From positions 2,430,001-2,462,000 of the forward strand of contig NC_007614.1 in assembly GCF_000196355.1 (NCBI RefSeq): a stretch of DNA of 32,000 nt, written 5' to 3'. Shown piece after piece: positions 3,113 through 27,456 of this stretch. Position numbers and translations under genes: made by a program. Under the pieces are notes generated by a model that had not been told where the DNA came from, did not search any database, and was given only the letters and a program-made list of their open reading frames with translations. Within the stretch, counting starts at the first letter, position 1. The number at the start of each line of letters is the position of its first letter. The DNA comes from Nitrosospira multiformis ATCC 25196 (GTDB taxonomy: Bacteria > Pseudomonadota > Gammaproteobacteria > Burkholderiales > Nitrosomonadaceae).

Positions 3113-4282
3113 CTAAGCGTAGCAGCGCAGCCTGCGGGAGAAATTCTGCAATACCTCGATGCCGCTTTCCTCGGCGCGGTGACACCAGTCTTCCAGCTGC
3201 TTGACCAGCTCATCCTTGGATGAAGTGGAGCGTTGCCATACCGTTATCAATTCCTCGCGCATTTTGTAAACTTTATCCAGCGTACTCGTCTTGCTCAGCA
3301 CTAGATTGAGCTTTGCCCGCTCGTCTTCCTGCAGGGTCTTGGAGTCCGCAAGTACCCAACGCTTGAGTGTGGAACGATCGACGCCAAGATTTGTCGCCGC
3401 TTCTTTCAGATGATCAACTTCCTTTGCCAGCGTCTGCTTGAGAGACTGGGCATACTTTGCCAGTACTTCGTAGCGATGGGAAATGACAGCTTGCAGCGTA
3501 TCTGCGTCGCATTCTGTCTTTGCGGCATCGAGGCGCAGTTTCGGCGCCACCTTCTTCACTTGCGCCAACCCCATCCACTGGAGAATGCAAATATACATCC
3601 AGCCGATGTCGAATTCATACCACTTGTTGGATAAGCGCGCGGAAGTGGCATAAGCGTGGTGGTTGTTGTGCAACTCCTCTCCGCCAATGAGAATTCCCCA
3701 GGGAACGATATTGGTGCTGGCGTCTTCGGCCTGGAAATTACGGTAGCCCCAGTAATGTCCTATCCCATTGATCACGCCCGCAGCCATGATGGGCGCCCAT
3801 GCCATCTGGATGGCCCAGATGGTCAGGCCGATGGGTCCGAACAGAATGACGTCGATGATCAGCATGAGGGCCACCCCCTTGCGGCTGTGCTTGTCATAGA
3901 CATTCCGCTCCAGCCAGTCATCCGGCGTACCATGGCCGTATCTTTCCATGGTTTCCATGTTTTTGGCTTCTGCGCGGTAGAGCTCCGATCCCTCCCGCAG
4001 CACTTTGGCGATCCCCACTATTTGCGGACTATGGGGATCATCGACCGTTTCACACTTGGCATGATGCTTCCGGTGTATGGCGGTCCACTCCTTGGTGACC
4101 ATCCCGGTCGTGAGCCACAGCCAGAAGCGGAAAAAATGACTCGGCAAGGGATGAAGATCCAGCGAGCGATGAGCTTGATGACGATGCAGAAAGATTGTGA
4201 TACTGGCTATGGTTATGTGGGTAAGGCCGAGGGTAACGGCGATATAACCCCACCATGGCAAGTCGATAAGACCGAGAGTCAT
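3113..4282 (-). CDS. Membrane fatty-acid (acyl-lipid/acyl-CoA, delta-9-like) desaturase with a roughly 100-aa helical C-terminal tail
   Basis: 389 aa with three histidine boxes: HRHQAH, HRKHH and HNNHH. Hydrophobic N-terminal segments are present. Length and layout resemble proteobacterial DesA-type desaturases. Confidence 0.88.
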   Translation of the reverse strand: MTLGLIDLPWWGYIAVTLGLTHITIASITIFLHRHQAHRSLDLHPLPSHFFRFWLWLTTGMVTKEWTAIHRKHHAKCETVDDPHSPQIVGIAKVLREGSELYRAEAKNMETMERYGHGTPDDWLERNVYDKHSRKGVALMLIIDVILFGPIGLTIWAIQMAWAPIMAAGVINGIGHYWGYRNFQAEDASTNIVPWGILIGGEELHNNHHAYATSARLSNKWYEFDIGWMYICILQWMGLAQVKKVAPKLRLDAAKTECDADTLQAVISHRYEVLAKYAQSLKQTLAKEVDHLKEAATNLGVDRSTLKRWVLADSKTLQEDERAKLNLVLSKTSTLDKVYKMREELITVWQRSTSSKDELVKQLEDWCHRAEESGIEVLQNFSRRLRCYA

Positions 4283-11210: not shown

Positions 11211-14200
11211 ATGAACGCAATCAATAACAAAATATTCCTTTCTTTTTGGCAGGCAGGCTATGAAGGGGCGGACCACATCAATGGTGAGGGCTTGCCTTTA
11301 TCCATGAATCACGCCACGCAGCATGCTGATCTGGCATATCACGATTATTCGCTACTGCAGGATTTTGGGATCGGAACGGTCCGCGAAAGCGTGGGTTGGC
11401 GGTCAGTGGAAAAAGAGGGGGGCTTCGATTTTTCGTCTGTCGAACTACGTGCCCACGCGGCTCGAGACTGTGGCCTACAGGTCATATGGACGTTATGTCA
11501 TTACGGTTGGCCAGATGAGATCGATCCCTATTCGGCTGATTTCATTGACCGGTTTTCGCTGTTTTGTTCTCGAACGGTGGAATATCTTGAATCATTTTCG
11601 AACAACGACGTTGTTTCCATCTACACCCCGATTAACGAAATCTCCTTCACCAGCTGGGTATCTGTGAGAAATCGCTTCATGTGCGCCAATCCACATGACG
11701 ACGACGGAGCGGAGTTAAAGCGGCAGCTGGTGCGAGCAACGATGAAAGGCTGCGAGGAAATCTGGAAAATCAATCCTTCCGCCCGCATTCTTCATTGCGA
11801 GCCGCTGATACACGTCGTTGCTCCTGATGACCGGCCTGACCTTGAGGATCACGCAGAGATGTACAGGCAATCCCAGTTCGAAGCCTGGGACATGCTCTGC
11901 GGACGCCTGGAGCCTGAGTTGGGGGGCGCGCCGCATTTTCTGGACCTGATCGGAGTGAACTACTATCACAGCAACCAATGGGAATCTAGCAGCGACAAAT
12001 GGGAGGCAGGCCTTCCTCTCTTCTGGCACCTCGATCATCCCCGCCGTGTTCCATTCTATGACCTTCTAAACGAGGTTTATCGCCGTTATCACCGGCCTGT
12101 TTTAATTTCGGAAACCAGCCATGTCGGAAGTGGCAGGGGTGCGTGGATCAAGGAAGTGGCGCAGCACGCGGTAATAGCTCAACAGTCTGGGGTGGACCTG
12201 CACGGAATCTGTCTGTATCCCATCGTTGATCGACCAGATTGGGATAACCCGGAACATTGGCATAAAAGCGGTCTATGGGAAGTAAATATCGAGGGGGAAA
12301 AAGAAGAAACACGGTACCAGCGGGTTTTATCGCAGACATATGCCGCTGGTTTAAGAGATGCTCAACGACTGACTCATAATCTTTTTTCACATTGCCTTTC
12401 AATTCAAACCCCATCCAACACTCTAGGAATCCCAATGACGACAATTATTGTTTTTTCCCATCTGCGCTGGGACTTTGTATATCAACGCCCCCAACATCTT
12501 CTCTCCCGGCTTGCTGAAAACTACAAGATTGTTTTCATTGAAGAGCCGATTCTGCACCAGCACGACAGCTTCCTCGAATACTCCCAGCCGGTGCCGAACA
12601 TTACCGTGGTGAAGCCTCGCACACCGGTCGCCGCAGCAGGTTTCCATGATGAACAACTGCCGCATCTGATCAGATTGATGCAGCAATTTGTCGTTCTGGA
12701 AGAAGAGCACATCGCCTGGTTTTATACGCCCATGGCGCTGCCGCTGCTGCAGGAGCTGCAACCCTCCCTGGTTATTTATGATTGCATGGACGAACTCGCC
12801 TCTTTCAAGAATTCACCCAAGCAAATGCTTCAACGGGAAAATGCGTTGCTGAGAATTGCGGACCTCGTTTTTACCGGCGGGCCAAGCCTCTACCGCGCAA
12901 AGCGGGCACGCCATCCGAACGTGCATTGCTTTCCCAGCAGTGTAGATATCGTACATTTTGAACAAGCAAGGGACCGGAGCAATCACCACCCGGCCCAGGA
13001 GGACATACCCGGCCCCCGGCTCGGCTACTATGGCGTGATAGACGAGCGAATTGATCTGGAACTCATCGATCGTCTGGCGGAGGCGCACCCGCAATGGCAG
13101 ATCGTGCTGGTCGGGCCCGTCGCGAAGATCAGCCGGAGCGCGTTGCCCCGACGGCATAACATTCACTACCTGGGCCAGCAGCCCTATAAGGCCCTTCCGC
13201 ATTTTCTGGCTGGCTGGAACGTATGTTTGCTGCCTTTTGCCTTGAATGAATCCACACGCTTCATCAGCCCGACCAAGACGCTGGAGTATATGGCTGCCGA
13301 ATTGCCTGTAATCAGTACACCCGTTGCGGATGTAGTGGAACTGTATGGGGAAGCCGTATCGATTGCAGATACCCCGCAGGCTTTCATCCGGGCCTGCGAG
13401 AACGCGTTGCTGACCACCCCCGAAGACAATACGCAAACGATTATGAGAATGCGGGAAATGGTATCGGCAACCTCCTGGAATACAACTGCGGAAAAAATGC
13501 ATGAACTCATGCAGGTTGCCGTGCTGCAGAACGAAGGATCAACGAGGGGTGTACGCCGGTTCATGGAACCCGAGTCCCTCATTCCTGGGAACCTGGAATC
13601 TACTCCTGCCGAAAACAGAAAGGTTGTCATTATCGGAGCGGGGCCGACCGGATTGAGTGCTGCTTATCACCTTGACGAAGAGACGCTGCTGCTGGACAAG
13701 AATTCGGTTGTCGGCGGATGGTGCCGCTCGATTGAAGACAAAGGTTTCACCTTTGATCACGCCGGTCACATCATGTTTTCAAACGACCCCTATGTGCATC
13801 AGCTCTACAAGATTCTGCTCGGCAATAACGTTCATTGGCAGGACCGTGAAGCCTGGGTTTACAGCAAAGGCATTCATACCCGCTATCCGTTTCAGGGCGC
13901 CCTCTATGGTCTGCCCGCCGATGTCATCAAGGAATGCATTGTGGGAGCGATGGAAGCGCGCTACGGCACATTAAAGACTCCTCAAGCAAAATCAATGGAA
14001 GGAACCTGCCAGGGTATGGACGGGGCCGCTACCGTTGTATCGGACTGCTGCGCCGATGGGACCGGGAGTATAGTCCCCGGGTCCGGCGAAGTACGAGGGG
14101 CCGAAGGCATGGTTGACAGAAGCAAAGCCGAGAACTTCGAAGAGTTCATCTATCGGGTGTGGGGAGCAGGTATCGCGAAACATTTTGCGATACCTTACAA

Positions 14201-15092
14201 CAGAAAACTCTGGACAGTTCCACTGACCGAAATGGAAACTTCCTGGCTTGGGGGCCGCGTACCCCTGCCTGATCTGGAGGAAATCATAGAAGGCGCATTA
14301 CGGCCTGTCGCCAAACCGATGGGCCCCAATGCGCGCTTCGGTTACCCTCTCCGAGGGGGATTTCAGGCCATGATGTCTGGCTTTGTTCCCCACATCAAAG
14401 GCGCCATTGAGCTGAATACAGAGGTCGCCCGCATTTCACCGGATCAACACTTGATTACATTGGCGGATGGAAGGCGCTACCGCTATCAGTATCTGCTCAG
14501 CACGATACCCCTACCCGAGCTGATCCGCAGCATGGGGGATGAAGCGCCTCCCCCCATCAAAAAAGCGGCAGCCGCATTGCGCCACGTTTCAGTACGCTGC
14601 GTCAACCTGGGTATCGGCAGGGAAAACATTTCAGACAAGCACTGGATCTATTATCCGGAAGACACCATCTTCCATCGGGTTTTTCTCCAGGGGAATGCCA
14701 GTCCTGCCTGCAATCCCCCGGGCGGATTCGGGCTCACCTGCGAGATATCCTACTCGCCGGTCAAACCTCTCCCACTCGACGGCCAGGAGTTGATCGACCG
14801 ATGCGTGGAAGACTGCATCAAGGTGGGTTTATTTACGCGGGACGATAAATTGATTACGGCCAATCTGGTAGATATGCCGTACGCGTATGTAGTATATGAC
14901 CACGCGAGAAAGCAGAGCGTTGAAACCATCCGGCAATGGCTTTCGGAGCGCGATATTATCCTGGCCGGACGCTACAGTGAGTGGGAATATTACAACTCCG
15001 ATCATGCTTTCCTGGCAGGAAAAAAGGCAGCAGAAGTTATCGATGAACTCATTGACGGCGAAGAACATATTGCCGACAAAACCGCAGTGTGA
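11211..15092 (+). CDS. Three-domain fusion: clan GH-A (GH1-like) TIM-barrel glycosidase, GT-B glycosyltransferase, long-form (eukaryote-type) UDP-galactopyranose mutase-like flavoenzyme
   Basis: One uninterrupted 1293-aa ORF.
- Residues ~1-400: YTPINEISF (acid/base Glu) and VLISETSH (nucleophile Glu), about 158 residues apart.
- Residues 409-~780: MTTIIVFSHLRWDFVYQRPQHL plus the C-terminal ISPTKTLEYMAAELPVIST GT-B motif.
- Residues ~800-1293: KVVIIGAGPTGLSAAY (FAD), HAGHIMFS, RYPFQ, FAIPYNRKLWTVPLTEMETSWLGGRVPLP, GPNARFGYPLRGG, HWIYYPED and GRYSEWEYYNSDHAF. As I recall the sequence, these are colinear with fungal-type UGM. Confidence 0.85.
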   Translation: MNAINNKIFLSFWQAGYEGADHINGEGLPLSMNHATQHADLAYHDYSLLQDFGIGTVRESVGWRSVEKEGGFDFSSVELRAHAARDCGLQVIWTLCHYGWPDEIDPYSADFIDRFSLFCSRTVEYLESFSNNDVVSIYTPINEISFTSWVSVRNRFMCANPHDDDGAELKRQLVRATMKGCEEIWKINPSARILHCEPLIHVVAPDDRPDLEDHAEMYRQSQFEAWDMLCGRLEPELGGAPHFLDLIGVNYYHSNQWESSSDKWEAGLPLFWHLDHPRRVPFYDLLNEVYRRYHRPVLISETSHVGSGRGAWIKEVAQHAVIAQQSGVDLHGICLYPIVDRPDWDNPEHWHKSGLWEVNIEGEKEETRYQRVLSQTYAAGLRDAQRLTHNLFSHCLSIQTPSNTLGIPMTTIIVFSHLRWDFVYQRPQHLLSRLAENYKIVFIEEPILHQHDSFLEYSQPVPNITVVKPRTPVAAAGFHDEQLPHLIRLMQQFVVLEEEHIAWFYTPMALPLLQELQPSLVIYDCMDELASFKNSPKQMLQRENALLRIADLVFTGGPSLYRAKRARHPNVHCFPSSVDIVHFEQARDRSNHHPAQEDIPGPRLGYYGVIDERIDLELIDRLAEAHPQWQIVLVGPVAKISRSALPRRHNIHYLGQQPYKALPHFLAGWNVCLLPFALNESTRFISPTKTLEYMAAELPVISTPVADVVELYGEAVSIADTPQAFIRACENALLTTPEDNTQTIMRMREMVSATSWNTTAEKMHELMQVAVLQNEGSTRGVRRFMEPESLIPGNLESTPAENRKVVIIGAGPTGLSAAYHLDEETLLLDKNSVVGGWCRSIEDKGFTFDHAGHIMFSNDPYVHQLYKILLGNNVHWQDREAWVYSKGIHTRYPFQGALYGLPADVIKECIVGAMEARYGTLKTPQAKSMEGTCQGMDGAATVVSDCCADGTGSIVPGSGEVRGAEGMVDRSKAENFEEFIYRVWGAGIAKHFAIPYNRKLWTVPLTEMETSWLGGRVPLPDLEEIIEGALRPVAKPMGPNARFGYPLRGGFQAMMSGFVPHIKGAIELNTEVARISPDQHLITLADGRRYRYQYLLSTIPLPELIRSMGDEAPPPIKKAAAALRHVSVRCVNLGIGRENISDKHWIYYPEDTIFHRVFLQGNASPACNPPGGFGLTCEISYSPVKPLPLDGQELIDRCVEDCIKVGLFTRDDKLITANLVDMPYAYVVYDHARKQSVETIRQWLSERDIILAGRYSEWEYYNSDHAFLAGKKAAEVIDELIDGEEHIADKTAV

Positions 15093-15098
15093 TCAGGC

Positions 15099-15902
15099 AT
15101 GATAATAGACGCTCATATTCATTGTTCAGGAGACGAAAAAGTAGATGACGTTCTACAGGCATTGGATCAGGCGCAAGTGGACAAGGCCGTTGTGCTTGCG
15201 CCATTTTTGAGCGGCCCGTATTCCATGCACGACAGTGCGTCGTTGAGATCGGCCAACCAGTACCTTTCCCGGCTGATAGGCCATCACACCGACCGGCTGA
15301 TCGGCTTTGCGGTAATCAACCCTTCGTTAGAAGGAGCATGCCAGGATCTTGTGAGCGCCCATGAACTGGGGCTCCATGGACTCAAAATGGTGCCAGCCGG
15401 ATGGTATCCTTATGACGACTGTGCACGGGATGTTTATGAAACAGCAGCCCGCCTCAAAATTCCAATCCTGTTCCACAGCGGGATTTTCATCGATGGAAAA
15501 TCGGGGCGTTTCTGCCGCCCCAGCTTTTACGAAGCGATACGCGATTATCCTGACTTGCGCGTTACCCTCGCTCACCTAGGGTGGCCCTGGTCAGATGAGG
15601 CGAATGCGGTAGGTCTCATAGACCTCATCAACGGAGTGCCGCCCGATAACAGCCAGTTTCGCTTCGACATTTCCTTTGGCGCCCCCCCCGTTTACCGCCT
15701 TGAAGTTCTCAGAAAAGCAATCGACGTCCTCACGCCCGATTTATTGCAATTCGGCAGCGATGTGTTCTTGCCCTGTAGCGCGGATTTGATAAAAAGCCGA
15801 ATTGACGAGGTGTTGATGCTGCTGGAACGTCTCGAAGTGGACAAATCCAGTCGCGACCGGATCATGGGAGGGACAGCCGCAGCCTGGTTGGGGATAAACT
15901 GA
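15099..15902 (+). CDS. Amidohydrolase-2 family metal-dependent TIM-barrel hydrolase
   Basis: 267 aa with the N-terminal IIDAHIHC HxH metal motif, a later ILFHSG, and LAHLGWPW. It starts 6 nt after the fusion gene stop. Confidence 0.8.
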   Translation: MIIDAHIHCSGDEKVDDVLQALDQAQVDKAVVLAPFLSGPYSMHDSASLRSANQYLSRLIGHHTDRLIGFAVINPSLEGACQDLVSAHELGLHGLKMVPAGWYPYDDCARDVYETAARLKIPILFHSGIFIDGKSGRFCRPSFYEAIRDYPDLRVTLAHLGWPWSDEANAVGLIDLINGVPPDNSQFRFDISFGAPPVYRLEVLRKAIDVLTPDLLQFGSDVFLPCSADLIKSRIDEVLMLLERLEVDKSSRDRIMGGTAAAWLGIN

Positions 15903-15903
15903 C

Positions 15904-17067
15904 GTGAAAATCATTTCAACCGCCGAACGGCCTGTCAATCTTCTTGAGATCATAGGGGCTTCCATTGTCGGTGGAATGGAAACTTACGTCTTGAGGTTGC
16001 TCGAGCGGCTTCCCCAGGACTCTTTTCGGGTCACCTGCCTCTGTGTGGCGGAAGGCAAACTCGCATCCCAATTACGCAGCATCGGTTGCAGCGTTCACAT
16101 CACGCCCATCACGGATGAGCCCGACTGGCAGGCTGTCCTGCTGGGCTCCAGCCTGATCCGGACTGATGCGATCGACGTCATTCATGCACACCTTCCCAAT
16201 GCACACTCACTTGCAGGTATTCTGAGCAGGTTGACCGACACGCCAGCTGTGTCCACTATTCACGGACGCTACCTGAGCATGCGCGATTTTGAAGTGCACA
16301 AGCTCATGAATACCCATATCAACGTGGTTGCAAAAACCGCCTACTTCCATGCTTTGACCCTCGGCGTACCGAGCACAAAACTACGTTTTATTCCGAATGG
16401 AATCGATACAAAGATCTTTCAACCGGCCCCCAAGTCGAATTACCTTCATTCCTTGATCAAGATCCCGCCAGAAACGCCTCTCGTAGGCTTCATTGGACGC
16501 CTCTCGCCCGAAAAGGGACCGGGAGTATTTGTTCAGGTGGCGCGGATAGCACAAAGGAAATTGAAGAATTGCCACTTCGTACTGGTGGGCGAAGGGCCGA
16601 TGCGGCGGGAGCTCCAGAAGGAAATCGACGAGTATGGCCTGAAGGACCACATCCATATAGTCGGACTGCAGAGAGACATCACAAAAATCTATCCCTGCCT
16701 CGATCTCGTCGTGTCGACTTCATATTCCGAAGCGATGCCACTTGTAATAGTAGAAGCGATGGCGTCAGGCCTCCCGGTGGTGGCCACGAATGTCGGGGGG
16801 GTGGTCGATATTGTCGAGGTAGGCGGAACCGGATTGCTGAAAGGTCCGGGAGATACGGAAGGACTGGCAAACGATGTCATCACTTTGATGACCGACAATT
16901 CGACCCGTATCCAGATGGGAGCAGCAGCCCGAAAACGGGCCGAAGAAAAATTCGACCTAAGTGATATCGTCGCTCAAACTGCACAATTATTGCGATCTCT
17001 TACCCAAGGGGGTATCAAAGGAAGCGATGCGGATACGACAAAAGGCTATCGAAAAGCGCGTTCCTGA
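15904..17067 (+). CDS. GT4-family (GT-B) glycosyltransferase
   Basis: 387 aa. GTG start one nt after the preceding stop. Motifs: GGMETYVLRLLERL, GRLSPEKG, and the E-x7-E region SEAMPLVIVEAMASGLPVVATNVGG. Confidence 0.88.
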   Translation: MKIISTAERPVNLLEIIGASIVGGMETYVLRLLERLPQDSFRVTCLCVAEGKLASQLRSIGCSVHITPITDEPDWQAVLLGSSLIRTDAIDVIHAHLPNAHSLAGILSRLTDTPAVSTIHGRYLSMRDFEVHKLMNTHINVVAKTAYFHALTLGVPSTKLRFIPNGIDTKIFQPAPKSNYLHSLIKIPPETPLVGFIGRLSPEKGPGVFVQVARIAQRKLKNCHFVLVGEGPMRRELQKEIDEYGLKDHIHIVGLQRDITKIYPCLDLVVSTSYSEAMPLVIVEAMASGLPVVATNVGGVVDIVEVGGTGLLKGPGDTEGLANDVITLMTDNSTRIQMGAAARKRAEEKFDLSDIVAQTAQLLRSLTQGGIKGSDADTTKGYRKARS

Positions 17068-18215: not shown

Positions 18216-19853
18216 CTACCCGGCTGGTTTTCTGCTCGTATAGATCTGATAGGGAAGGTTGGGTGGATCAGGCAGCCGATCGAAGTATTCGACGATGTAG
18301 CGGTAAATAAGGGGATGGGTGTTACGAAAGCGTAATTCCTCCCGCCCATCGAGGGGCAGATCGTATATCAGAACAAAGCCCGGGCTGGCCGCCGCAATGC
18401 GCCTGATTTCCTCTTGCTGAAAATCCCCATTTCGGGGAAAAAGAGCATATATCTCCCACATCGGAGATTTGGTATTCAGCAGTGGATAGGCGCCAGGCCA
18501 GAATGGAGTCGCGACGAAGCTTCCGCCATCTGGCGCATATTCCTTGGCTAGTTTCCTGAGCAGACGAACGTCGCTTTCCACCTCCGGCAAAACCATGAGC
18601 CGGTTACCCGAAATTTCAATGGCCTTGCATGGGCCACTGGTGTGACATTGCCAGCCCGGATGAAAAGCATGCATCACCCACAAACTCATAATGCATAACG
18701 CCGCTGCGAAAGACCATTTGATTTTCGGGGGCTGCGCGGCCAACAGTACGAGGCAGCCGATCAATAACGGAAAGATGCTCTGGGCAAGGTGCCCCACATC
18801 GGCGCGGGAATATGCATAATGCGCATAGGGCAACCCGAGGAACACCGACGCGACCAGCACGGGCGAAACAGCTTTGTTATGAAATTTCTGGAAAAGGCTC
18901 CATGCAACTCCGACCAGGCTGAAGATCAGTATTCCGATGAAGAGCACGCCGATCAGTACGCCGCGAATTGCTTCCTCGCTCGGTATCGAATCCAGGGATA
19001 CTTTCCATGGCCACGGAACGGGCAGAGAAAGATTGGTCGCCTTCACTTCAGACAGAAAGCGGATGCTTTCCCAGAATGCGCCAGCAAAACCAGGCACAAG
19101 CAGCGCCATCGCAAGCAGCGGCGTGAAGCCAGCCGCCACTCCTGCTGCCCAGAGCAATAATCCCTCCACGAACCCGGGCTGATCCTTTCTACTGTCGGGA
19201 TTGATCGCTAACCAAACCATCACTCCGGCGCTGCCCATCGCTCCATACAGGCCGTGATTGCGGCCAAAAACAGCCACCAGACCGATGCCCAGACCACACA
19301 CGAAGTAGCGTAGCCTCGCGGGATGCTGAACCAGAAAACTCGAGACGCCAACGAGAAGAATGGACAGGGAAATATCGAACAGCTTATGGCGCGGATACAT
19401 CCACACCATGAGAGTGATTGCCGAAAGCAGCAGATAGAGAAAACCCGGGAACTTGAAGCGCAGGAGGCTTTTTTGTGCAATCAGCAGGAGACCCGTGAAC
19501 AAGCCTATGGCCTGGAATACCGCCACCGCGCCACGCAAAGCCATGATGCCATTGTCGCCCCATAAGCTCATCAGAGCTGCCGACCAATAATAACGGCCAG
19601 GATCGTAGGACATGAAATCGCGCAGAGGTACCTCCCCCAGCAATACCCGCTGGGCCCCGTACCATAGGTAACCTTCATCCCACAGATTGAATCCCTTGTG
19701 CCCCTGCCACAGAAAGGACGCAAGCACTGCGAAAGCAGCCAGCACGAATACGGGCAATATTTGATGTATCAGCGGGAGATTTTTTATCGGGAGGGTTTTC
19801 TGGAGTTTGCCTGGCATCGCTGTATGGTTGAGGCGAAGCATGGCATCATACAT
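18216..19853 (-). CDS. Polytopic membrane protein, putative GT-C-fold (PMT_2/ArnT-like) glycosyltransferase
   Basis: 545 aa with at least 10 hydrophobic segments. The first-loop motif LWDEGYLWYGAQRVLLGEVPLRDF resembles the DE-containing loop of GT39/GT83-type enzymes. A soluble C-terminal domain of ~140 aa follows. The family call is tentative. Confidence 0.5.
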   Translation of the reverse strand: MYDAMLRLNHTAMPGKLQKTLPIKNLPLIHQILPVFVLAAFAVLASFLWQGHKGFNLWDEGYLWYGAQRVLLGEVPLRDFMSYDPGRYYWSAALMSLWGDNGIMALRGAVAVFQAIGLFTGLLLIAQKSLLRFKFPGFLYLLLSAITLMVWMYPRHKLFDISLSILLVGVSSFLVQHPARLRYFVCGLGIGLVAVFGRNHGLYGAMGSAGVMVWLAINPDSRKDQPGFVEGLLLWAAGVAAGFTPLLAMALLVPGFAGAFWESIRFLSEVKATNLSLPVPWPWKVSLDSIPSEEAIRGVLIGVLFIGILIFSLVGVAWSLFQKFHNKAVSPVLVASVFLGLPYAHYAYSRADVGHLAQSIFPLLIGCLVLLAAQPPKIKWSFAAALCIMSLWVMHAFHPGWQCHTSGPCKAIEISGNRLMVLPEVESDVRLLRKLAKEYAPDGGSFVATPFWPGAYPLLNTKSPMWEIYALFPRNGDFQQEEIRRIAAASPGFVLIYDLPLDGREELRFRNTHPLIYRYIVEYFDRLPDPPNLPYQIYTSRKPAG

Positions 19854-20360: not shown

Positions 20361-21848
20361 TCATGTTCTGACGGAAACACTATACGCCCCTGTACCGGTC
20401 GGGCTGTAATGCCTGACCTGAACATAATAGACACCGGCCCCGAGGTTTTGCACGATGCGCGAATTGGTTCCCGGGCCACTGTCGTCATCCTGGGCAATGA
20501 CGGCAGTCTGGCTGTCGGGGCCGAATAACGTGAGGAAGCAATCAGTGCTACCAGCGGTTTCTATCGTATGGGAGCCGGACGTGCTGACAGTAAAGGTGTA
20601 CAGATCCCTCTCATTGGCGGAGAGTGTGCCCTGCACTGCCGGACCATTTATCTGAATGGTCTGGATACCCGGCTGCGGGCCTCCTGACCCTCGTACTGAA
20701 ATACGGTAGCTTCCAGTGGATGAGCCGCTATAGTGCCTTATGCGAACATAGTATGTTCCCGGCGCCAGGTCTCGTGCAATGCGCGGATTCCGGCCGACGC
20801 CGCTGTCGTCATCCTCGGCAACGAGCGCATTGGCATCATCCGGACCATACAGGGCGGCCACTACATCGGTGGAACCCTCGGTTTCGATAATATAATTCCC
20901 CTGGCTTGAGGCAACGAAGCTATATGTGTCCACTTCTCCCGCCTGGCCTATGGAAGCGGCAAACGGAGCCGCATCAAGGGTCAGGGGTACGATCTGCGGA
21001 GGTTCTTCTTCCTCGTCATCGTACGTGTAGCCAAGCGCATGGTGATCGAGAACATCCCGGGGCGTAGGCGGCGAAGCTTCGTTGTTCCAGGGCGGCATCG
21101 GGTCATCCAGTCCATGGCCGTTCACCACGCCCGCCGTGCCGCTCGGCGGACGATAATTCTGCCCCGGATTTTCCCGCTGCCATACTGCCCATAACCGATC
21201 GATATTGCAATGATGCAGCCAGAACACCGGATCGTTGGGGGAGGACATAGCCATCATCGAGCCGCCTACCCACATGTGGCCGGGATTGTGGATAATCCCC
21301 TCGAGATGGTTTCGAAAACTCGTATTCATGCTGCTGTTACGATTCCAGGGCGCTGAATCATAGGGCACGATATTGATGGCGGCATTCACTCCCTGTTGGG
21401 TGGGCAACGCTCCCATGGCGCCGAAGGCACGGGTGAGAAAATTATCCGTGTCACCGGGGTCCAGAACAGTAAGCGTCCACTCTCCCGTGGAAAAGGCGAA
21501 CGGCCCCGTCATCACGCGTCCGCCGGGGCCCGTTCCATTTCCACCCATGAAATTCGCATTCCAGATGGAAGCATTCGTCGTGCGATCAACTGTCCAGTCC
21601 CAATAGGGGATGGAAACACTGGGATCGATCTGCTGAAGGGCACGCTCGAACCGGCGGAGATACTCCCTGTGCCAAGGCAGAAAGGCAGGACCGCCATGTG
21701 CCGGATCGTTCACGCCGGCAAGAAAGGCGGTACGGTGCTGGGCCACGAATACATCATAGGAGCCATTTGCCTTGAGTGCTTTTACCGCCCCAACAAAGGC
21801 CGCCTTCTCCGCGGCTGTCAACGTGGATTGATTCTTTCGGGTTCCCAT
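20361..21848 (-). CDS. Type-3 copper tyrosinase with two tandem C-terminal PPC (pre-peptidase C-terminal) domains
   Basis: 495 aa. CuA region is AQH...HGGPAFLPWHREYL. CuB region is HNPGHMWVGG...DPVFWLHHCNIDRLW. Residues ~288-386 and ~396-495 are two paralogous ~100-aa units (DDDSG.G.N.RI...L..G.YYV..RHYS...TG.Y..SVR). There is no N-terminal signal peptide. Confidence 0.9.
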   Translation of the reverse strand: MGTRKNQSTLTAAEKAAFVGAVKALKANGSYDVFVAQHRTAFLAGVNDPAHGGPAFLPWHREYLRRFERALQQIDPSVSIPYWDWTVDRTTNASIWNANFMGGNGTGPGGRVMTGPFAFSTGEWTLTVLDPGDTDNFLTRAFGAMGALPTQQGVNAAINIVPYDSAPWNRNSSMNTSFRNHLEGIIHNPGHMWVGGSMMAMSSPNDPVFWLHHCNIDRLWAVWQRENPGQNYRPPSGTAGVVNGHGLDDPMPPWNNEASPPTPRDVLDHHALGYTYDDEEEEPPQIVPLTLDAAPFAASIGQAGEVDTYSFVASSQGNYIIETEGSTDVVAALYGPDDANALVAEDDDSGVGRNPRIARDLAPGTYYVRIRHYSGSSTGSYRISVRGSGGPQPGIQTIQINGPAVQGTLSANERDLYTFTVSTSGSHTIETAGSTDCFLTLFGPDSQTAVIAQDDDSGPGTNSRIVQNLGAGVYYVQVRHYSPTGTGAYSVSVRT

Positions 21849-21850
21849 TT

Positions 21851-22285
21851 TTATCTCCCCGCCTCACGGTAATCGATAATTTTCCGCGCCAAGTCCATAG
21901 GCGAAGGTTGCGGATCGAAAGCGAAGCCGGAGGCGATATACGAGCCGGATGAATTCTTTATGACGAAAACGTTCTTTCCATCAATCCTCACGTCTACTGC
22001 CTCTCCACCTGCAGCCCTTCCCGCTCCCCCGGACTCCAATCCCGCAGCGCCTTCTGCTGGCGCATCTTTCCCCGTTCGAACAACAATCTCCCGGCCTTTA
22101 TAAGTTTCACGCTGTTCCGCCATTTTCTCCCCCGCACAGGTATTGTTCCAAGCTGAATGCTCGCCCCTCGATAAGCTGATGTTTTCAATATAGGTGTTTT
22201 CATCAAAAATGCCAGAAGAGCCAAACGCGGACGCAGCCAACACATAAAGCATGAACGTCAACAAGCCGGATGTAGAATGTCGCAT
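21851..22285 (-). CDS. MelC1/caddie-like tyrosinase cofactor protein with an N-terminal signal/anchor
   Basis: I prefer the internal ATG at 22285 (MRHSTSGLLTFMLYVLAASAFGSSG..., 144 aa) over the track start at 22420. YKGREI, a Gly/Ala-rich linker, VRIDGKNVFVIKNSSGSYI and FDPQPSPMDLARKIID are colinear with Streptomyces MelC1 as I recall it (YKGRRI ... [19 protein letters not shown] ... YEPVDTPRAAARAAVD). Its stop lies 2 nt before the tyrosinase ATG. Confidence 0.65.
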   Translation of the reverse strand: MRHSTSGLLTFMLYVLAASAFGSSGIFDENTYIENISLSRGEHSAWNNTCAGEKMAEQRETYKGREIVVRTGKDAPAEGAAGLESGGAGRAAGGEAVDVRIDGKNVFVIKNSSGSYIASGFAFDPQPSPMDLARKIIDYREAGR

Positions 22286-22426
22286 GCATTGGACCCTCGG
22301 TTCTGTCGCCAAACTTCTACCGGAGCCCCCGTTGAAGCCGGGTCCATGTGGCTTGGGAGCCCAGGGCAAGGGAAGGCAGGGACGGTTCGAATAACAGTAG
22401 TAGGACGTTTCCCCCGTCAAATCCTC

Positions 22427-23488
22427 TTATCGCCACAAAAAGCTTGACATACCATTAAATTCCGGCTTTGCGCGGACGCGAATCAAATGCGCCTCCTGTG
22501 TGACCTGGAAGCGGACTGGCAGAAACTGTTCCAGCAGCCAAATGGTTGTCGCGGCGTGGGAGGAGAGTTCCCTTGTGAGAAAGCAAGATACGCCGCTCGC
22601 CAGCGCGAGGTAGATCAATACTTGGTCTGCCGCATGAATATCCAGCGTTGCGCCGGACAGGATTTCCTCGCGCAAGCACCGCCCCGCCTCAGCACCGAGG
22701 CGTTCGGCTGGCACGCCTCTTTCTGCGACGGCAGATGCCCCCAGACGGCTATGCTCCTTGTGCGCGGTCAAAAGCACCGCTCCGCCCTCACCTATCGCGT
22801 CATCCTTCCCGAATACTTCCAGGCCAACAGCTGGGGTGGGAAAAGTCGAAAGTTCCGCCAGTGCTCCGTTCGCCATGCGGTGGATGATGTGCTTGGGCAG
22901 GTTTGAAATGTGTACGAAACCGGTTATACCCTCCAGCCCTTCCGATGCGTTCAGGAGCACCGGACGCAAAGGCAGGCAAGGTTCTACGTCCACAACCACC
23001 TTTCCTCCGCCGCGAGGATAATACCCCCGGAGCAACACTTCGATCTTCGCCCTGGCGCCCATGCTATAAACCAGCGGCAGCAATACGTAGCGGAAGTAAT
23101 CCAGGGGCGGCGCAGCGCGAACATCGGTCCCACCCGAAATGTTCATCCGCACCTTTTCTCCGCATGCCAAGGCAACTGGAAGCGCTGCCTGGAGCACCAA
23201 GGTAACACTGCCTGCCGTGCCTATCGGAAAATCATATTCGCCCCCGCGTAACGGGCCAGGGCGAAAAATGATTTCCTGCGATTTGACTTCCATTCCTTCC
23301 GTCCGGGCCCTGCAAAGCGCTGCCACCGCCTTTACGGCAGTCAGATGTTGAGGCGCAAGACCAGGATTGGAACGTTTTGCACGAATGTTGTACACACGAA
23401 CCGATTGTCCCGTTATCGCCGCAAGCGCAACCGACGTGCGGAGCAACTGGCCGCCACCTTCTCCATAAGAACCATCGATTTCCTGCAT
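22427..23488 (-). CDS. rtcA: RNA 3'-terminal phosphate cyclase
   Basis: MQEIDGSYGEGGGQLLRTSVALAAITGQSVRVYNIRAKRSNPGLAPQHL is the canonical RtcA N-terminus. The adenylylation-site region is LDIHAADQ. I chose the ATG at 23488 (GAGG 5 nt upstream) over the track start at 23545. Confidence 0.9.
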   Translation of the reverse strand: MQEIDGSYGEGGGQLLRTSVALAAITGQSVRVYNIRAKRSNPGLAPQHLTAVKAVAALCRARTEGMEVKSQEIIFRPGPLRGGEYDFPIGTAGSVTLVLQAALPVALACGEKVRMNISGGTDVRAAPPLDYFRYVLLPLVYSMGARAKIEVLLRGYYPRGGGKVVVDVEPCLPLRPVLLNASEGLEGITGFVHISNLPKHIIHRMANGALAELSTFPTPAVGLEVFGKDDAIGEGGAVLLTAHKEHSRLGASAVAERGVPAERLGAEAGRCLREEILSGATLDIHAADQVLIYLALASGVSCFLTRELSSHAATTIWLLEQFLPVRFQVTQEAHLIRVRAKPEFNGMSSFLWR

Positions 23489-23602
23489 TCTGACCTCTTT
23501 GGTTGATATAGCCGGGAACAATAGATTTTTCGACCTACAATTCATGTAGCATCAAGAATCCCATGACCGCGCGGCTGGGCATCTGCCTGAAAAGGAAGCT
23601 TC

Positions 23603-24995: not shown

Positions 24996-25323
24996 CGCTG
25001 ACCTTGATCTTCCGGTTACCTTTCCTTCATATTTCCATATCTGGAGATCCGTCAGTCAGTCAATGCAGGCGATGCCCAATAGACGCCCGTTCTCCTGTTT
25101 CAACCAATTCTGAATTAATAGCTCCATTCGGAGCTGCACGCCTTGCATTTTCTCAAGACTTGCTTGTAAATGCCCAACTCAATATATCCGCATGCAGCAG
25201 GCCCTATCTTAGGGTTGTTTAGCGCAGTGATAGTGTATGAAGATGACTTGCGAAGAGAACTTAAACAACAGGAGGATTTGTCAAATCGTTACATTCTTGT
25301 TTTGCGATAAGGAGACCTCATTC

Positions 25324-27456
25324 ATGAAGTGCAATCATGGCATGAAGCGCAAGCTTCTTCTTGCAGCAATAACCATGCTGCTTACCATAATTGCCGTGGC
25401 CCCGGTGCGCGCTGATAATGCCGTCAAGTTGAGAATATTGGTCGTTTCCACAGGAGAGGTGGCAGAAGACCTGGGATTGGCCTATATCAAGCCTGTCCTC
25501 GATGAAATGGGCGTTCCATATGTCGTGCTGAATACCAGGGTGCAGAATCTGACGCCTGCGTTTCTGGCTGCTTCTTCGCAAGGAACGGCCTGCAAGGCCG
25601 AGGAGGCAGGGTGTGTTGGCAACTACAATGGAGTCATCCTCACCGACGCGGACCTGATCCCAGGCTTCACCTCGGCCGAATGGGACATATTGCACAATTA
25701 CGAGAAGAATTTCCGGGTCCGGGAAGCGGTATTGTCAGGGTGGCCGGCCACATACGCGAATCCGAAGCCGCCGCACGACATCTATCTGGATTATGGTCTC
25801 GTCTACTCCTCAAGCGGACACAATTATGATGGGCGCTGGACAATACCGGGGAGGTACAGCAAGGAAGTCTTTGAATACGTAAACAGGAATAATCCGCTTC
25901 CAATTACATCCCTTGCCTTTGCGACCCATCCCCGAAACGATATGAACCGGATGAAAGACGGCTCGATACCCTATGTCGAACCGCTATTACGAACCGGACA
26001 GGGCGAAACACTGCTGTCCATCATACGGTACATGAAGCCTGCCCGTAAGAGCCCAATGCGCGAAGTGCTGATTTCGACGATTACGAATGCGTCGTTCCTT
26101 ATGCATTCGAAAGTTCTGGCTTATGAGTTCGTCAACTGGGCGACCCAAGGCGTTTTCATCGGTGCGCGCTTCATCCATCTGGCGGCGCATGTGGATGACC
26201 TGTTTCGTACCAACAATCAATGGAATCCTGCTCTCGATAAGGAGAACGGCATTTATCGCCTCACCGGCGCTGACATAACCAATGCAGTGGGCAAACAGGC
26301 TGCCCTCCGGGTCGCGCATCCGACAGCGGGGAATTTCAAGCTGGACTTCGCATTCAATGGTGCGGGAGCGGTGGTGAATCCACAGGCGATGCCGCTCGCT
26401 GCAAACTGGAAAGATGATCTGGTAGCAGCAATAGTGGGCAATAAAACGCATTTTCGCTTCATCAACCACACCTTCACGCATGCAGATATGGACAAGTCAC
26501 CGGTTCCGGCTGATGCGCCCTGCGATTACCGCACTTTTACGAGTGCAGAGGCAATCAGGGCTGAAATCACTGCCAACCAGAACGTGTGGGCGCTACTGGG
26601 TCTTCCCGAGAGAAGCGAGAACAATCGCGTGCTCATCACCGGGGCCCATTCCGGCCTGAAAGATCAGAAATGCACGGATGACCCTGCCTTACACCCGGGT
26701 ATGTTCAATCTTCAGGCTGACGACATAGCCTTTGATGCAGGCGGCGCCAATCCGCTATTGCTTCAGGCGGCCGCCACCGCAGGCGTGGAATATCTTGCTG
26801 CCGATACCTCACAAAAAGCTCAAAACGTTGAGCAGTATATCACCCAGTATGAGGATGGCAGCAAAACGGATCGACTCATGCTGCCACGCTGGCCAACCGA
26901 TATTTTTTATAACGTGACAAATCCTTCCCAGCTGGAGGACGAGTATAACTACTTATATTATTACCGTTTTATCAATGCCGGACAAAATCCATGCGAGGCG
27001 CGGGCAAGGGCTTGCTCTCCCCGGAGCTACCGCGAAATCCTCGCCATCGAAGCGGATACCGCAGTGCGGCACATGCTGAGCTTTAGCCGGTGGCCGCATT
27101 TTTTTCATCAGTCGAATCTTGCGCGGTATGATGAAAACGGCAGAACACTCCAGTTTGATTGGCTCGATGCAGTCTTCACGAAATATGAGGGATTGTTCAC
27201 CCTGCCGGTCAAAAATCTTCCTTACTATAAAATCGGCGACCACACTGCGGAAAGCCTCAACGCCAGGTCTGCAAAGATCGATGCAATATGGAATCGGACA
27301 ACCAATCGGGTTACTCTGTCGGCAAACAAAGCGGTGCCTCACCTTCGTGTCACTGGTCTTTCCGGGGGGGAGATTTATGGCGGCCAGCTTATCGGAAACA
27401 TCAGCGTGGATACGAAGGCCACCATGTACGAGGTCGACAGAGGGTTGACTCGATGA
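25324..27456 (+). CDS. Large secreted protein with a CE4-superfamily-like metal-dependent deacetylase core, possibly Agd3/CE18-like
   Basis: The track ORF starts at 25237. I prefer the ATG at 25324, with AAGGAG 9 nt upstream. Signal peptide is MKCNHGMKRKLLLAAITMLLTIIAVAPVRA|DN. Motif pair: AAHVDDLF (Asp-Asp) and FINHTFTHADMD (HxxxH), followed later by WPHFFHQSNL. The N-terminal alpha/beta domain is LRILVVSTG...GVILTDADL. The functional call is tentative. Confidence 0.55.
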   Translation: MKCNHGMKRKLLLAAITMLLTIIAVAPVRADNAVKLRILVVSTGEVAEDLGLAYIKPVLDEMGVPYVVLNTRVQNLTPAFLAASSQGTACKAEEAGCVGNYNGVILTDADLIPGFTSAEWDILHNYEKNFRVREAVLSGWPATYANPKPPHDIYLDYGLVYSSSGHNYDGRWTIPGRYSKEVFEYVNRNNPLPITSLAFATHPRNDMNRMKDGSIPYVEPLLRTGQGETLLSIIRYMKPARKSPMREVLISTITNASFLMHSKVLAYEFVNWATQGVFIGARFIHLAAHVDDLFRTNNQWNPALDKENGIYRLTGADITNAVGKQAALRVAHPTAGNFKLDFAFNGAGAVVNPQAMPLAANWKDDLVAAIVGNKTHFRFINHTFTHADMDKSPVPADAPCDYRTFTSAEAIRAEITANQNVWALLGLPERSENNRVLITGAHSGLKDQKCTDDPALHPGMFNLQADDIAFDAGGANPLLLQAAATAGVEYLAADTSQKAQNVEQYITQYEDGSKTDRLMLPRWPTDIFYNVTNPSQLEDEYNYLYYYRFINAGQNPCEARARACSPRSYREILAIEADTAVRHMLSFSRWPHFFHQSNLARYDENGRTLQFDWLDAVFTKYEGLFTLPVKNLPYYKIGDHTAESLNARSAKIDAIWNRTTNRVTLSANKAVPHLRVTGLSGGEIYGGQLIGNISVDTKATMYEVDRGLTR

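Follow-up and report, generated by a model that had tools for sequence, protein, structure and literature searches.

One reading frame for three domains

We analysed a stretch of 32,000 nucleotides (nt) from Nitrosospira multiformis ATCC 25196 (NC_007614.1, positions 2,430,001 to 2,462,000; hereafter the window), in which a single forward-strand open reading frame (ORF) joins three enzyme domains. An initial annotation, made from the sequence alone, had named these domains a clan GH-A glycoside hydrolase (GH), a GT-B glycosyltransferase (GT) and a long-form UDP-galactopyranose mutase (UGM). The ORF listing and its translation confirmed one frame of 1293 amino acids (aa) with an ATG start and zero internal stops, and all three assignments held up in sequence searches, hidden Markov model (HMM) scans or structure comparison, segment by segment. 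Every motif quoted in that annotation was located where it had been placed: PINEISF with N142-E143, ISETSH with E301, SHLRWDFVYQRPQH at residues 416-429, GAGPTGL at 809-815, RYPFQ at 891-895, PYNRKLW at 995-1001, GPNARF at 1038-1043, YYPED at 1147-1151 and GRYSEWEYYNSDHAF at 1253-1267. We propose with moderate confidence that the gene specifies a multi-enzyme of galactofuranose (Galf) metabolism, in which a mutase, a Galf-transfer activity and a glycosidase would be combined and two protein products made.

Table 1. Features of the fused gene and of its downstream partners (window coordinates)
Feature	Coordinates	Strand	Evidence
Whole 1293-aa ORF with GH1-like, GT-B and long-form UGM domains	11211..15092	+	Translation; full-length orthologues in many genera
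GH1-like (β/α)8 glycosidase domain, aa 1-400	11211..12410	+	AlphaFold (AF2) model; Foldseek; weak GH1 HMM matches
N142-E143, predicted acid/base 'NE' motif (PINEISF)	11634..11639	+	Conservation; GH1 NEP equivalence inferred from motif and fold
E301, predicted nucleophile (ISETSH)	12111..12113	+	Invariance; aligned to GH1 ITENG region (phmmer against 6kdc)
Shine-Dalgarno-like AGGA (12425-12428) and M409 ATG (12435-12437), candidate internal start of an 885-aa GT-UGM protein	12425..12437	+	Conservation
GT-B glycosyltransferase domain (TuaH-like, GT4-like), aa 409-775	12435..13535	+	Pfam; AF2; Foldseek
Long-form UDP-galactopyranose mutase domain, aa 801-1280; flavin adenine dinucleotide (FAD) motif GAGPTG at 13635-13652	13611..15050	+	PDB phmmer; catalytic residues
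Variable insertion in the UGM domain, aa ~917-972, with DCCADG motif (14043-14060)	13959..14126	+	Alignment
Amidohydrolase_2 family gene, probable operon partner, 6 nt downstream	15099..15902	+	Pfam PF04909, E 5e-22
Conventional GT4 glycosyltransferase, start abutting the previous stop (1 nt apart)	15904..17067	+	Pfam Glycos_transf_1, Glyco_transf_4

The GH-GT-UGM fusion proved common rather than rare. A search of 5.8 billion proteins returned 1889 homologues of the 1293-aa protein; the best 120 of them were nearly all 1260-1360 aa long with a query coverage of 98-100%, and came from genera including Nitrosospira, Nitrosovibrio, Nitrosomonas, Janthinobacterium, Duganella, Methylotenera, Rheinheimera, Shewanella and Alteromonas. 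Identity to the N. multiformis homologue in this search was 93%, and the protein of the finished N. multiformis ATCC 25196 genome (ABB75443.1) is 1293 aa long too. Unbroken ORFs of the same kind were also present in the genome collection in Enterobacterales, Xanthomonas and Herminiimonas. In principle such an ORF could stem from a frameshift or an assembly error that merges two or three genes, and split forms (GH and GT-UGM, or GT and UGM) are known in other lineages. Yet uninterrupted orthologues of 1260-1360 aa occur in dozens of independent assemblies, finished genomes included, and the domain linkers can be aligned without frame changes. Since full-length orthologues exist in many genera and in the finished ATCC 25196 genome, the fusion is not an assembly artefact, and we give that explanation a negligible probability. 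The protein has no hydrophobic or transmembrane segment and no signal peptide, suggesting that it is soluble and cytoplasmic.

In a phmmer search of the PDB the C-terminal domain matched the UGMs of Trypanosoma cruzi (TcUGM, 4dsg, E 3.5e-50) and Aspergillus fumigatus (AfUGM, 3ute, E 5e-50); the 503-aa query was aligned from residue 13 to residue 490, interrupted by one insertion. The scores of protoporphyrinogen oxidases and phytoene desaturases reached only ~1e-3, confined to the FAD-binding start, and the similarity to E. coli Glf detected by BLASTP was restricted to the same part (E 5e-4). The GAGPTG motif (809-814) and the histidine loop A851-G852-H853 were invariant in 30 orthologues. In characterised UGMs this loop holds Gly-His above flavin N5, and the role of its His62/63 has been described (PMC4192007, PMC3322874). 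The residues that matter in TcUGM are Gly61-His62, Arg176, Asn201, Tyr317, Arg327, Tyr395, Arg423, Tyr429 and Asn433 (PMC4192007); their equivalents G852-H853, R1016, N1040, Y1147, R1156, Y1226, R1254, Y1260 and N1262 were all invariant in the 30 orthologues. Asn207 (versus Phe), Trp315 and Gln458 set AfUGM apart from prokaryotic UGMs (PMC3322874), and the first two of these long-form markers are present as N1040 and W1145, the third being replaced by Ser1263. The PDB matches and the conserved TcUGM residues support the assignment of the domain as a UDP-galactopyranose mutase, as the initial annotation had predicted.

We considered whether the domain might instead be a redox enzyme of the amine-oxidase or protoporphyrinogen-oxidase type with no mutase activity. 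Its Pfam matches are solely to NAD_binding_8 and Amino_oxidase, and several database names read 'protoporphyrinogen oxidase' or 'FAD-dependent oxidoreductase'. Against this, UGMs scored E ~1e-50 where the oxidases and desaturases scored ~1e-3 over the FAD-binding start only, the UGM substrate-binding residues are all conserved, and a classical Glf stands in for the domain at other loci (see below). An oxidase is thus very improbable; it and the assembly artefact are effectively excluded.

The description of the domain as a eukaryote-type long form needs qualification: its best solved relatives are eukaryotic, but a prokaryotic family outscores them. Among 1.84 billion representatives we found 6685 relatives of the UGM domain at E <= 1e-3 and 1190 at E <= 1e-30. 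Many are standalone proteins of 430-450 aa with 35-42% identity and 260-340 bits, against 174 bits for the eukaryotic enzymes. They retain the His loop, the Arg327 equivalent and the C-terminal G-R...W.Y, and vary at other substrate positions. Because so many standalone relatives outscore the eukaryotic UGMs, the long form is a large family of prokaryotes, listed in NCBIfam as PRK07208 ('hypothetical'), and the eukaryotic enzymes are relatives of it.

The domain also carries an insertion of ~50 aa that is absent from the eukaryotic UGMs in the alignment and sits at AfUGM loop 135-141, a short loop equivalent to mobile loop 1 of prokaryotic UGMs (PMC3322874). Within it D945, C946, C947, D949 and G950 were invariant in 30 sequences, and the rest varied in length and sequence. 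The motif DCC[AGT]DG was found in 49 of 64 UGM-domain ORFs and was missing in standalone Gemmatimonadales UGMs and in short-spacer forms. Speculatively, a vicinal Cys pair on a flexible loop near the flavin site recalls redox or metal shuttles.

The middle segment is a GT-B glycosyltransferase, in agreement with the initial annotation. It passed the Pfam cut-offs for Glyco_trans_1_4 (42.2 bits, cut-off 27) and Glyco_trans_1_2 (32.4 bits, cut-off 25), and matched the NCBIfam TuaH equivalog with E 1.8e-25 at 89.7 bits, below the cut-off of 550. Its AF2 model (predicted local distance difference test, pLDDT, 88) showed the GT-B fold of two Rossmann-like domains. A PDB sequence search gave no usable match for this domain, and the literature search found no paper on the TuaH-like GT. 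By Foldseek its neighbours were MshA, sucrose-phosphate synthase, glycogen synthase and OtsA, with template modelling (TM) scores of 0.62-0.74, as well as BshA; several of the nearest structures are enzymes that glycosylate small molecules. We rejected a retaining or inverting call from these neighbours, as the list mixes the nearest, retaining enzymes (GT4, GT5, GT20) with the inverting GumK. The segment SPTKxLEYMAA holds a conserved Lys/Glu pair. EX7E is the motif of retaining GT4 enzymes; the sequence here, N679-E680-STRFISPTK689-TL-E692-YMAA-E697, has the spacings E-x11-E and E-x4-E and no E-x7-E.

The N-terminal domain was modelled on 50 homologues (AF2, pLDDT 92), and the top 50 Foldseek hits of the model in the PDB were all GH1 β-glycosidases (E 2.7e-17 to 1e-15, TM ~0.7, identity 14-18%), confirming the predicted clan GH-A barrel. 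Both proposed catalytic Glu motifs also stood up to comparison. Among the 50 homologues, which are 46-70% identical, E143, E301-T302 and H304 were invariant and N142 was conserved in at least 90%. R58, W63, H97, Y252 and W344/W350 were invariant or nearly so and, to judge from the motifs, probably line up with GH1 signature positions; the strand positions of the two catalytic Glu were inferred from the secondary structure of the model. By sequence the relationship is distant. The 1293-aa protein has no match to PF00232 and the GH domain no Pfam match of any kind; TIGR03356 gave 23 bits against a cut-off of 478 (E ~1e-3 to 1e-5), and GH1 chains of the PDB gave E 0.03. PF00232 was reached by a few of the domain's ~2900 homologues, which include standalone proteins of 385-420 aa, and by related fusions of GH1 with an RmlD-like domain. 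With the fold and the catalytic dyad of GH1 and scores below the PF00232 and TIGR03356 thresholds, the domain is best named GH1-like. No characterised homologue of it was found in the literature or among solved structures.

The RmlD fusions form a separate observation. Proteins of ~720 aa, in which a more canonical GH1 domain is joined to an RmlD-like (dTDP-4-dehydrorhamnose reductase) domain, adjoin GT-UGM in several genera (L023 12873-15041; also L040, L043, L045, L050, L051, L053, L062 and L071; L numbers designate loci of the genome scan described below). They are another uncharacterised pairing of GH1 with a nucleotide-sugar enzyme.

Architectures, junction and neighbours across genomes

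We scanned one genome per species and mapped the three domains on the ORFs of 80 loci. The commonest architecture was GT-UGM. It stood alone in Massilia, Duganella and Herbaspirillum and as a second copy in Nitrosospira sp. Nl5, and next to a neighbouring GH gene in Bryobacteraceae, other Acidobacteriota, Polaromonas and Uliginosibacterium. The complete GH-GT-UGM fusion occurred in Herminiimonas, Nitrosomonas, Janthinobacterium, Pseudoduganella, Xanthomonas and many Enterobacterales, including on a Pantoea plasmid. GH-GT forms that lack the long-form UGM were found in Acidovorax, Paracidovorax, Caldimonas, Variovorax and Chloroflexota, and in Gemmatimonadales all three domains were separate genes. 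Fused and split arrangements thus both exist among the orthologous loci, a comparison that the initial annotation had called for. N-terminal extensions of the ORFs at L033, L038 and L074 were rejected as extra domains: they have no Pfam matches and look like ORF-calling run-on in high-GC DNA.

What takes the place of the long-form mutase when it is missing? Using E. coli K-12 Glf as a probe, we found a classical short Glf (36-44% identity, E 1e-67 to 1e-85) beside the TuaH-like GT at L060, L063, L064, L065, L076, L079, L081 and L082, all of them loci without the long-form domain. Conversely, classical Glf was absent from all loci that carry the long-form domain. In a Chloroflexi metagenome-assembled genome (L070 2617-5088) the TuaH-like GT and, behind it, a classical short Glf form one in-frame fusion; here the other type of mutase has been joined to the GT independently. 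Among the 47 well-flanked loci, defined as those whose flanks measure 8 kb and 11 kb or more, 45 had a mutase (long-form UGM in 40, classical Glf in 5 more), in line with the earlier claim that this type of GT typically sits beside UGM genes. Because classical Glf displaces the long-form domain beside the same GT, the gene arrangements provide strong evidence that the long-form domain would do the mutase job and that the GT donor would be UDP-Galf.

Natural deletion variants showed which parts of the protein can be lost. In four Nitrosospira relatives (L001-L003 and L007), whose GT-UGM parts are 91-93% identical, GH residues ~81-400 are gone, together with most of the Zn-dehydrogenase, amidohydrolase and GT4 genes; in L001 and L007 fragments of these genes are left and a LysE gene is inserted. 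A 72-aa GH remnant (L001 7786-8004; also in L007) corresponds to the N-terminal part, aa ~20-80, and its TGA stop overlaps the GT-UGM start (ATGA), precisely at the M409 codon. GT-UGM in these variants is under purifying selection (synonymous divergence dS 0.36, ratio of nonsynonymous to synonymous divergence dN/dS 0.12). Because it is so constrained in genomes that lost the GH domain, GT-UGM is the functional core and the GH domain is accessory.

The same variants might be taken to mean that the GH1-like domain is a non-enzymatic module, binding sugar, scaffolding or regulating GT-UGM, for they dropped it while keeping GT-UGM. The scores far under the GH1 HMM cut-offs would fit such a role, as would the motif alignment, in which the glycone-binding Glu of the GH1 'NFEW' motif appears as Asp (RPDW). 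The near-invariance or invariance of R58, H97, N142, E143, Y252, E301 and W344 over 50 homologues that are only 46-70% identical argues the other way, and we consider a non-enzymatic domain improbable.

The GH/GT junction of the fused genes carries a candidate translation start of its own. M409 was invariant in 30 sequences, and its codon was ATG in 18/18 fused genes. AGGA, GGAG or GAGG was present 4-16 nt upstream of this ATG in 14/18 fused genes, versus 6.5% of other in-frame positions. Otherwise the linker peptide varies: residues -5/-4 are mixed (Q, K, E, L, S or P, then G or E), and a purine-rich motif is always encoded. The Nitrosospira deletion variants L001 and L007 begin their GT-UGM at the M409 ATG, and the GT/UGM junction has no such start signal and no conserved Met. 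The pattern suggests that fused genes keep a working ribosome-binding site and may yield an 885-aa GT-UGM protein besides the full one.

Glycosidase and galactose genes recur around the family. A clan GH-A glycosidase was present at 41 of the 47 well-flanked loci (a GH1-like domain at 28, GH2 at 21, the GH1-like::RmlD-like fusion at 5). The neighbouring GH2 proteins are 56-84% identical among loci, and their best solved relatives were 7XYR (E 9e-95), 7SF2 and the β-D-galactofuranosidase 9J6N (E 3e-59). GH2 group III, which includes 7XYR and 9J6M, is the sole GH2 group with furanosidase activities (PMC12243196). Because its commonest neighbour is a close relative of these furanosidases, the gene family appears tied to furanoside chemistry. 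GalT was adjacent in 15 loci and GalK in 16. In 11 loci (L085 5851-6966 and 10 others) a 371-aa protein, which had no Pfam match on record, no NCBIfam match and no PDB sequence match, is encoded between galT and galK, always co-operonic with the GH2 and GT-UGM genes. The operon reads galT-unk371-galK-GH2-[GH1-GT-UGM] in Janthinobacterium and [GH1-GT-UGM]-GH2-galT-galK, with galM divergent, in Methylotenera. The initial annotation's picture of a self-contained enzyme did not survive, given these companions (furanosidase-type GH2, GalK and GalT) of its relatives and the loss of the GH domain in the deletion variants.

In the window, the gene is followed by the amidohydrolase and conventional GT4 genes. 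The GT4 protein matched HepE, BshA and MshA in the PDB; the amidohydrolase had no relative in a PDB sequence search. The pair also lies next to a GH-GT(-UGM) gene in L054, L065 and L074, and the amidohydrolase was seen in L020, where the contig ends directly after it. A promoter and terminator scan of 9-18.5 kb found sites no more numerous than in shuffled sequence, so that no operon boundary could be called, and an Rfam scan of the whole window gave no match. IMPase/HisN-like and BrkB genes were discarded as partners, since other genera lack them and they remain unaltered as flanking genes in the deletion variant. The 3' ends of the GT4 gene and the convergent BrkB/YihY gene overlap by 22 nt (17046-17067).

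Other genes of the window are reported for completeness. A 739-aa ORF at 25237-27456 (+) has an Agd3-type deacetylase domain (PF25115). The Agd3 family serves fungal galactosaminogalactan processing, and the ORF may mark a separate exopolysaccharide locus. A single ORF at 3113-4282 (-) combines a fatty-acid desaturase domain with an ISL3-family transposase fragment, and the related contig L001 has the same chimera. At 20361-22420 (-), a tyrosinase with a C-terminal PPC domain lies beside a gene for a MelC1-like copper chaperone; the RNA 3'-phosphate cyclase RtcA (22427-23545) comes next after the tyrosinase. Finally, a 545-aa ORF at 18216-19853 (-) has no Pfam or NCBIfam match and no counterpart in related loci, and its syntenic slot in L001 holds only a 98-aa ORF.

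Proposed function

We propose the following sequence of events. The C-terminal flavin domain would convert UDP-galactopyranose (UDP-Galp) into UDP-Galf, and the fused GT-B domain would at once transfer Galf from UDP-Galf onto an acceptor. The mutase equilibrium lies ~9:1 towards the pyranose and UDP-Galf is labile, so fusing mutase and GT would pull the reaction forward. The N-terminal GH1-like domain would be a catalytically competent retaining glycosidase or transglycosidase that acts on a β-linked sugar of the same pathway, in turnover, trimming or chain transfer. In other genera this role would be shared with, or taken over by, the furanosidase-type GH2, and GalK and GalT would feed or re-activate released galactose. 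The internal ribosome-binding site and ATG probably allow both the 1293-aa protein and the 885-aa GT-UGM protein to be made.

Several observations speak against this proposal. In the mutase domain, Tyr334 of the AfUGM pocket is replaced by Ala1163 and Gln458 by Ser1263; the domain has no match to Pfam GLF (PF03275), and TIGR00031 gave only 19.9 bits (E 2.9e-4, cut-off 303). In the GT domain the classic EX7E motif of GT4 is not intact. The nearest GT structures are retaining, which would give α-Galf, and clan GH-A enzymes would cleave β-D-Galf or β-D-pyranosides, so that the product of the GT may not be the substrate of the GH domain. The conflict would vanish if the GT were inverting; if it is not, the glycosidases would have another bond as their target. 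The GH domain is also dispensable in close relatives, and GH2, GalK, GalT and the 371-aa protein are all missing from the window. As for the internal start, the binomial P of 6e-14 for the junction motif ignores the relatedness of the genes. A literature search returned no paper on any family member and no measured activity.

Could the module make an exported product instead? In this scheme the GT would polymerise a periplasmic or exported, possibly cyclic, oligo- or poly-galactofuranoside, the GH1-like domain would act as a transglycosylase that sets chain length or cyclises, and an MsbA/NdvA-type ABC exporter would carry the product out. A half-size ABC exporter (fused transmembrane and nucleotide-binding domains, ~600 aa) immediately follows the family gene in L008, L060 and L068, a few other loci have one close by, and genes for GGDEF proteins, a VpsR-type σ54 activator and PAS kinases recur in the vicinity. 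GH1 enzymes can be transglycosidases, as plant SFR2 is, and in cyclic β-1,2-glucan synthase a GH-like domain sets chain length or cyclises. On the other hand, the exporter was present at only 4 of the 47 well-flanked loci and is not in the window, membrane segments are lacking in the 1293-aa protein, the adjacent genes include no polymerase, flippase or chain-length gene, and the structural neighbours of the GT mostly glycosylate small molecules. We regard export as decidedly unlikely.

A catabolic or salvage route would run the GT in reverse, in the manner of sucrose synthase (Galf-X + UDP to UDP-Galf + X), with the mutase pulling towards UDP-Galp and the remaining galactose handled by the GH1-like domain, GH2, GalK and GalT. 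The operons with GalK, GalT, GalM and furanosidase-type GH2 do resemble Leloir catabolic operons, the mutase equilibrium favours UDP-Galp, and a sugar transporter of the major facilitator superfamily lies near the Janthinobacterium operon. But the gene occurs in obligate chemolithoautotrophs and methylotrophs (Nitrosospira, Nitrosomonas, Methylotenera), for which growth on galactofuranosides would be unexpected. Linkage to an uptake system is not consistent, the clusters hold no GalE, and a hydrolase alone would be enough for catabolism. We therefore give this route little credence.

To return to the proposed Galf multi-enzyme, a bolder version of it, which we consider possible though unlikely, is that the TuaH-like domain founds a new family of GT-B-fold Galf-transferases and that the two-isoform protein runs a cytoplasmic make-and-remodel cycle for an undescribed galactofuranoside. 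This galactofuranoside might be a solute based on Galf, a glycolipid or an oligo-galactofuranan; the GH1-like domain would be a furanoside transglycosidase or hydrolase, and GH2, GalK and GalT would recycle galactose. If so, the pathway would have a wide distribution among environmental Proteobacteria, Acidobacteriota, Gemmatimonadota and Planctomycetota, nitrifiers included.

Work on Galf has centred almost exclusively on pathogens (mycobacteria, Klebsiella, Aspergillus, trypanosomatids), whose transferases are of GT-A type or GT111 and whose mutases stand alone. In the present family, hundreds of environmental bacteria, ammonia oxidisers among them, have a mutase domain hard-wired to a GT-B transferase and a glycosidase domain. 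This points to a possible unrecognised Galf-containing product and to a candidate new family of Galf-transferases. As the GT is paired with one or the other of two mutase types that look unrelated, the product could be sought through this clean genomic signature. That the 'eukaryote-type' mutase has a large prokaryotic family is relevant to where the fungal and protozoan enzymes, which are drug targets, came from. A conserved internal start would be a tidy case of one ORF that specifies two enzyme isoforms.

Relation to known systems

The fused gene is a new architecture assembled from known kinds of enzyme and common in environmental bacteria. Database names for it are automatic ('NAD(P)-binding protein', 'protoporphyrinogen oxidase', 'UDP-galactopyranose mutase'), and no characterised example was found in the literature or among solved structures, as the initial annotation had supposed.

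Each domain can be set against its nearest known relatives. The GH1-like domain shares with the GH1 β-glycosidases of clan GH-A the (β/α)8 barrel and the NE and E catalytic motifs on the expected strands; at 14-18% identity it differs from them in being sub-threshold in Pfam and NCBIfam, apparently cytoplasmic and fused to a GT. We know of no furanosidase within GH1. The GH2 group III furanosidases (the Streptomyces ORF1110 β-D-galactofuranosidase, 9J6M/N, and 7XYR) have a relative in the commonest neighbour of the gene family, but that relative is a separate gene, absent from the window, and of another fold subfamily than the N-terminal GH domain.

The GT domain has the GT-B fold, Glyco_trans_1_4 and the Lys/Glu pair in common with TuaH-like GT-B/GT4 enzymes (structurally MshA, sucrose-phosphate synthase, OtsA and BshA), yet it is only 12-17% identical to solved GTs, scores far under the TuaH cut-off and departs from EX7E. 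Characterised Galf-transferases belong to GT2, GT31, GT40 and GT111. To our knowledge, UDP-Galf is not a known donor for the GT-B fold, and no GT-B-fold Galf-transferase has been described; the Galf-transferases listed in one source are GT2 and GT111 enzymes (PMC12269835).

The mutase domain shares the FAD motif, the histidine loop, both catalytic Arg, the diphosphate-binding Tyr pair, Asn207 and Trp315 with the A. fumigatus (3UTE) and T. cruzi (4DSG) enzymes. It differs from them in being bacterial and placed behind a GT, in the ~50-aa insertion with DCCADG, and in having Ala for Tyr334 and Ser for Gln458. With bacterial Glf (E. coli K-12 b2036) it presumably has the reaction in common, and the two occupy the same genomic slot by the TuaH-like GT, Glf being itself GT-fused in L070; their likeness is limited to the FAD-binding start, and PF03275 does not match the domain.

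As a whole, the protein can be compared with the cyclic β-1,2-glucan synthase Cgs and the Galf polymerases WbbM and GlfT2, which likewise combine sugar transfer and a second carbohydrate-active module in one polypeptide. None of these has a mutase or a GH1-like domain; they are membrane-associated and their GT folds are different (GT84 for Cgs, GT111/GT8 and GT2). WbbM and GlfT2, along with PamC, use UDP-Galf (PMC12269835), the donor that we propose for the fused GT-B domain.

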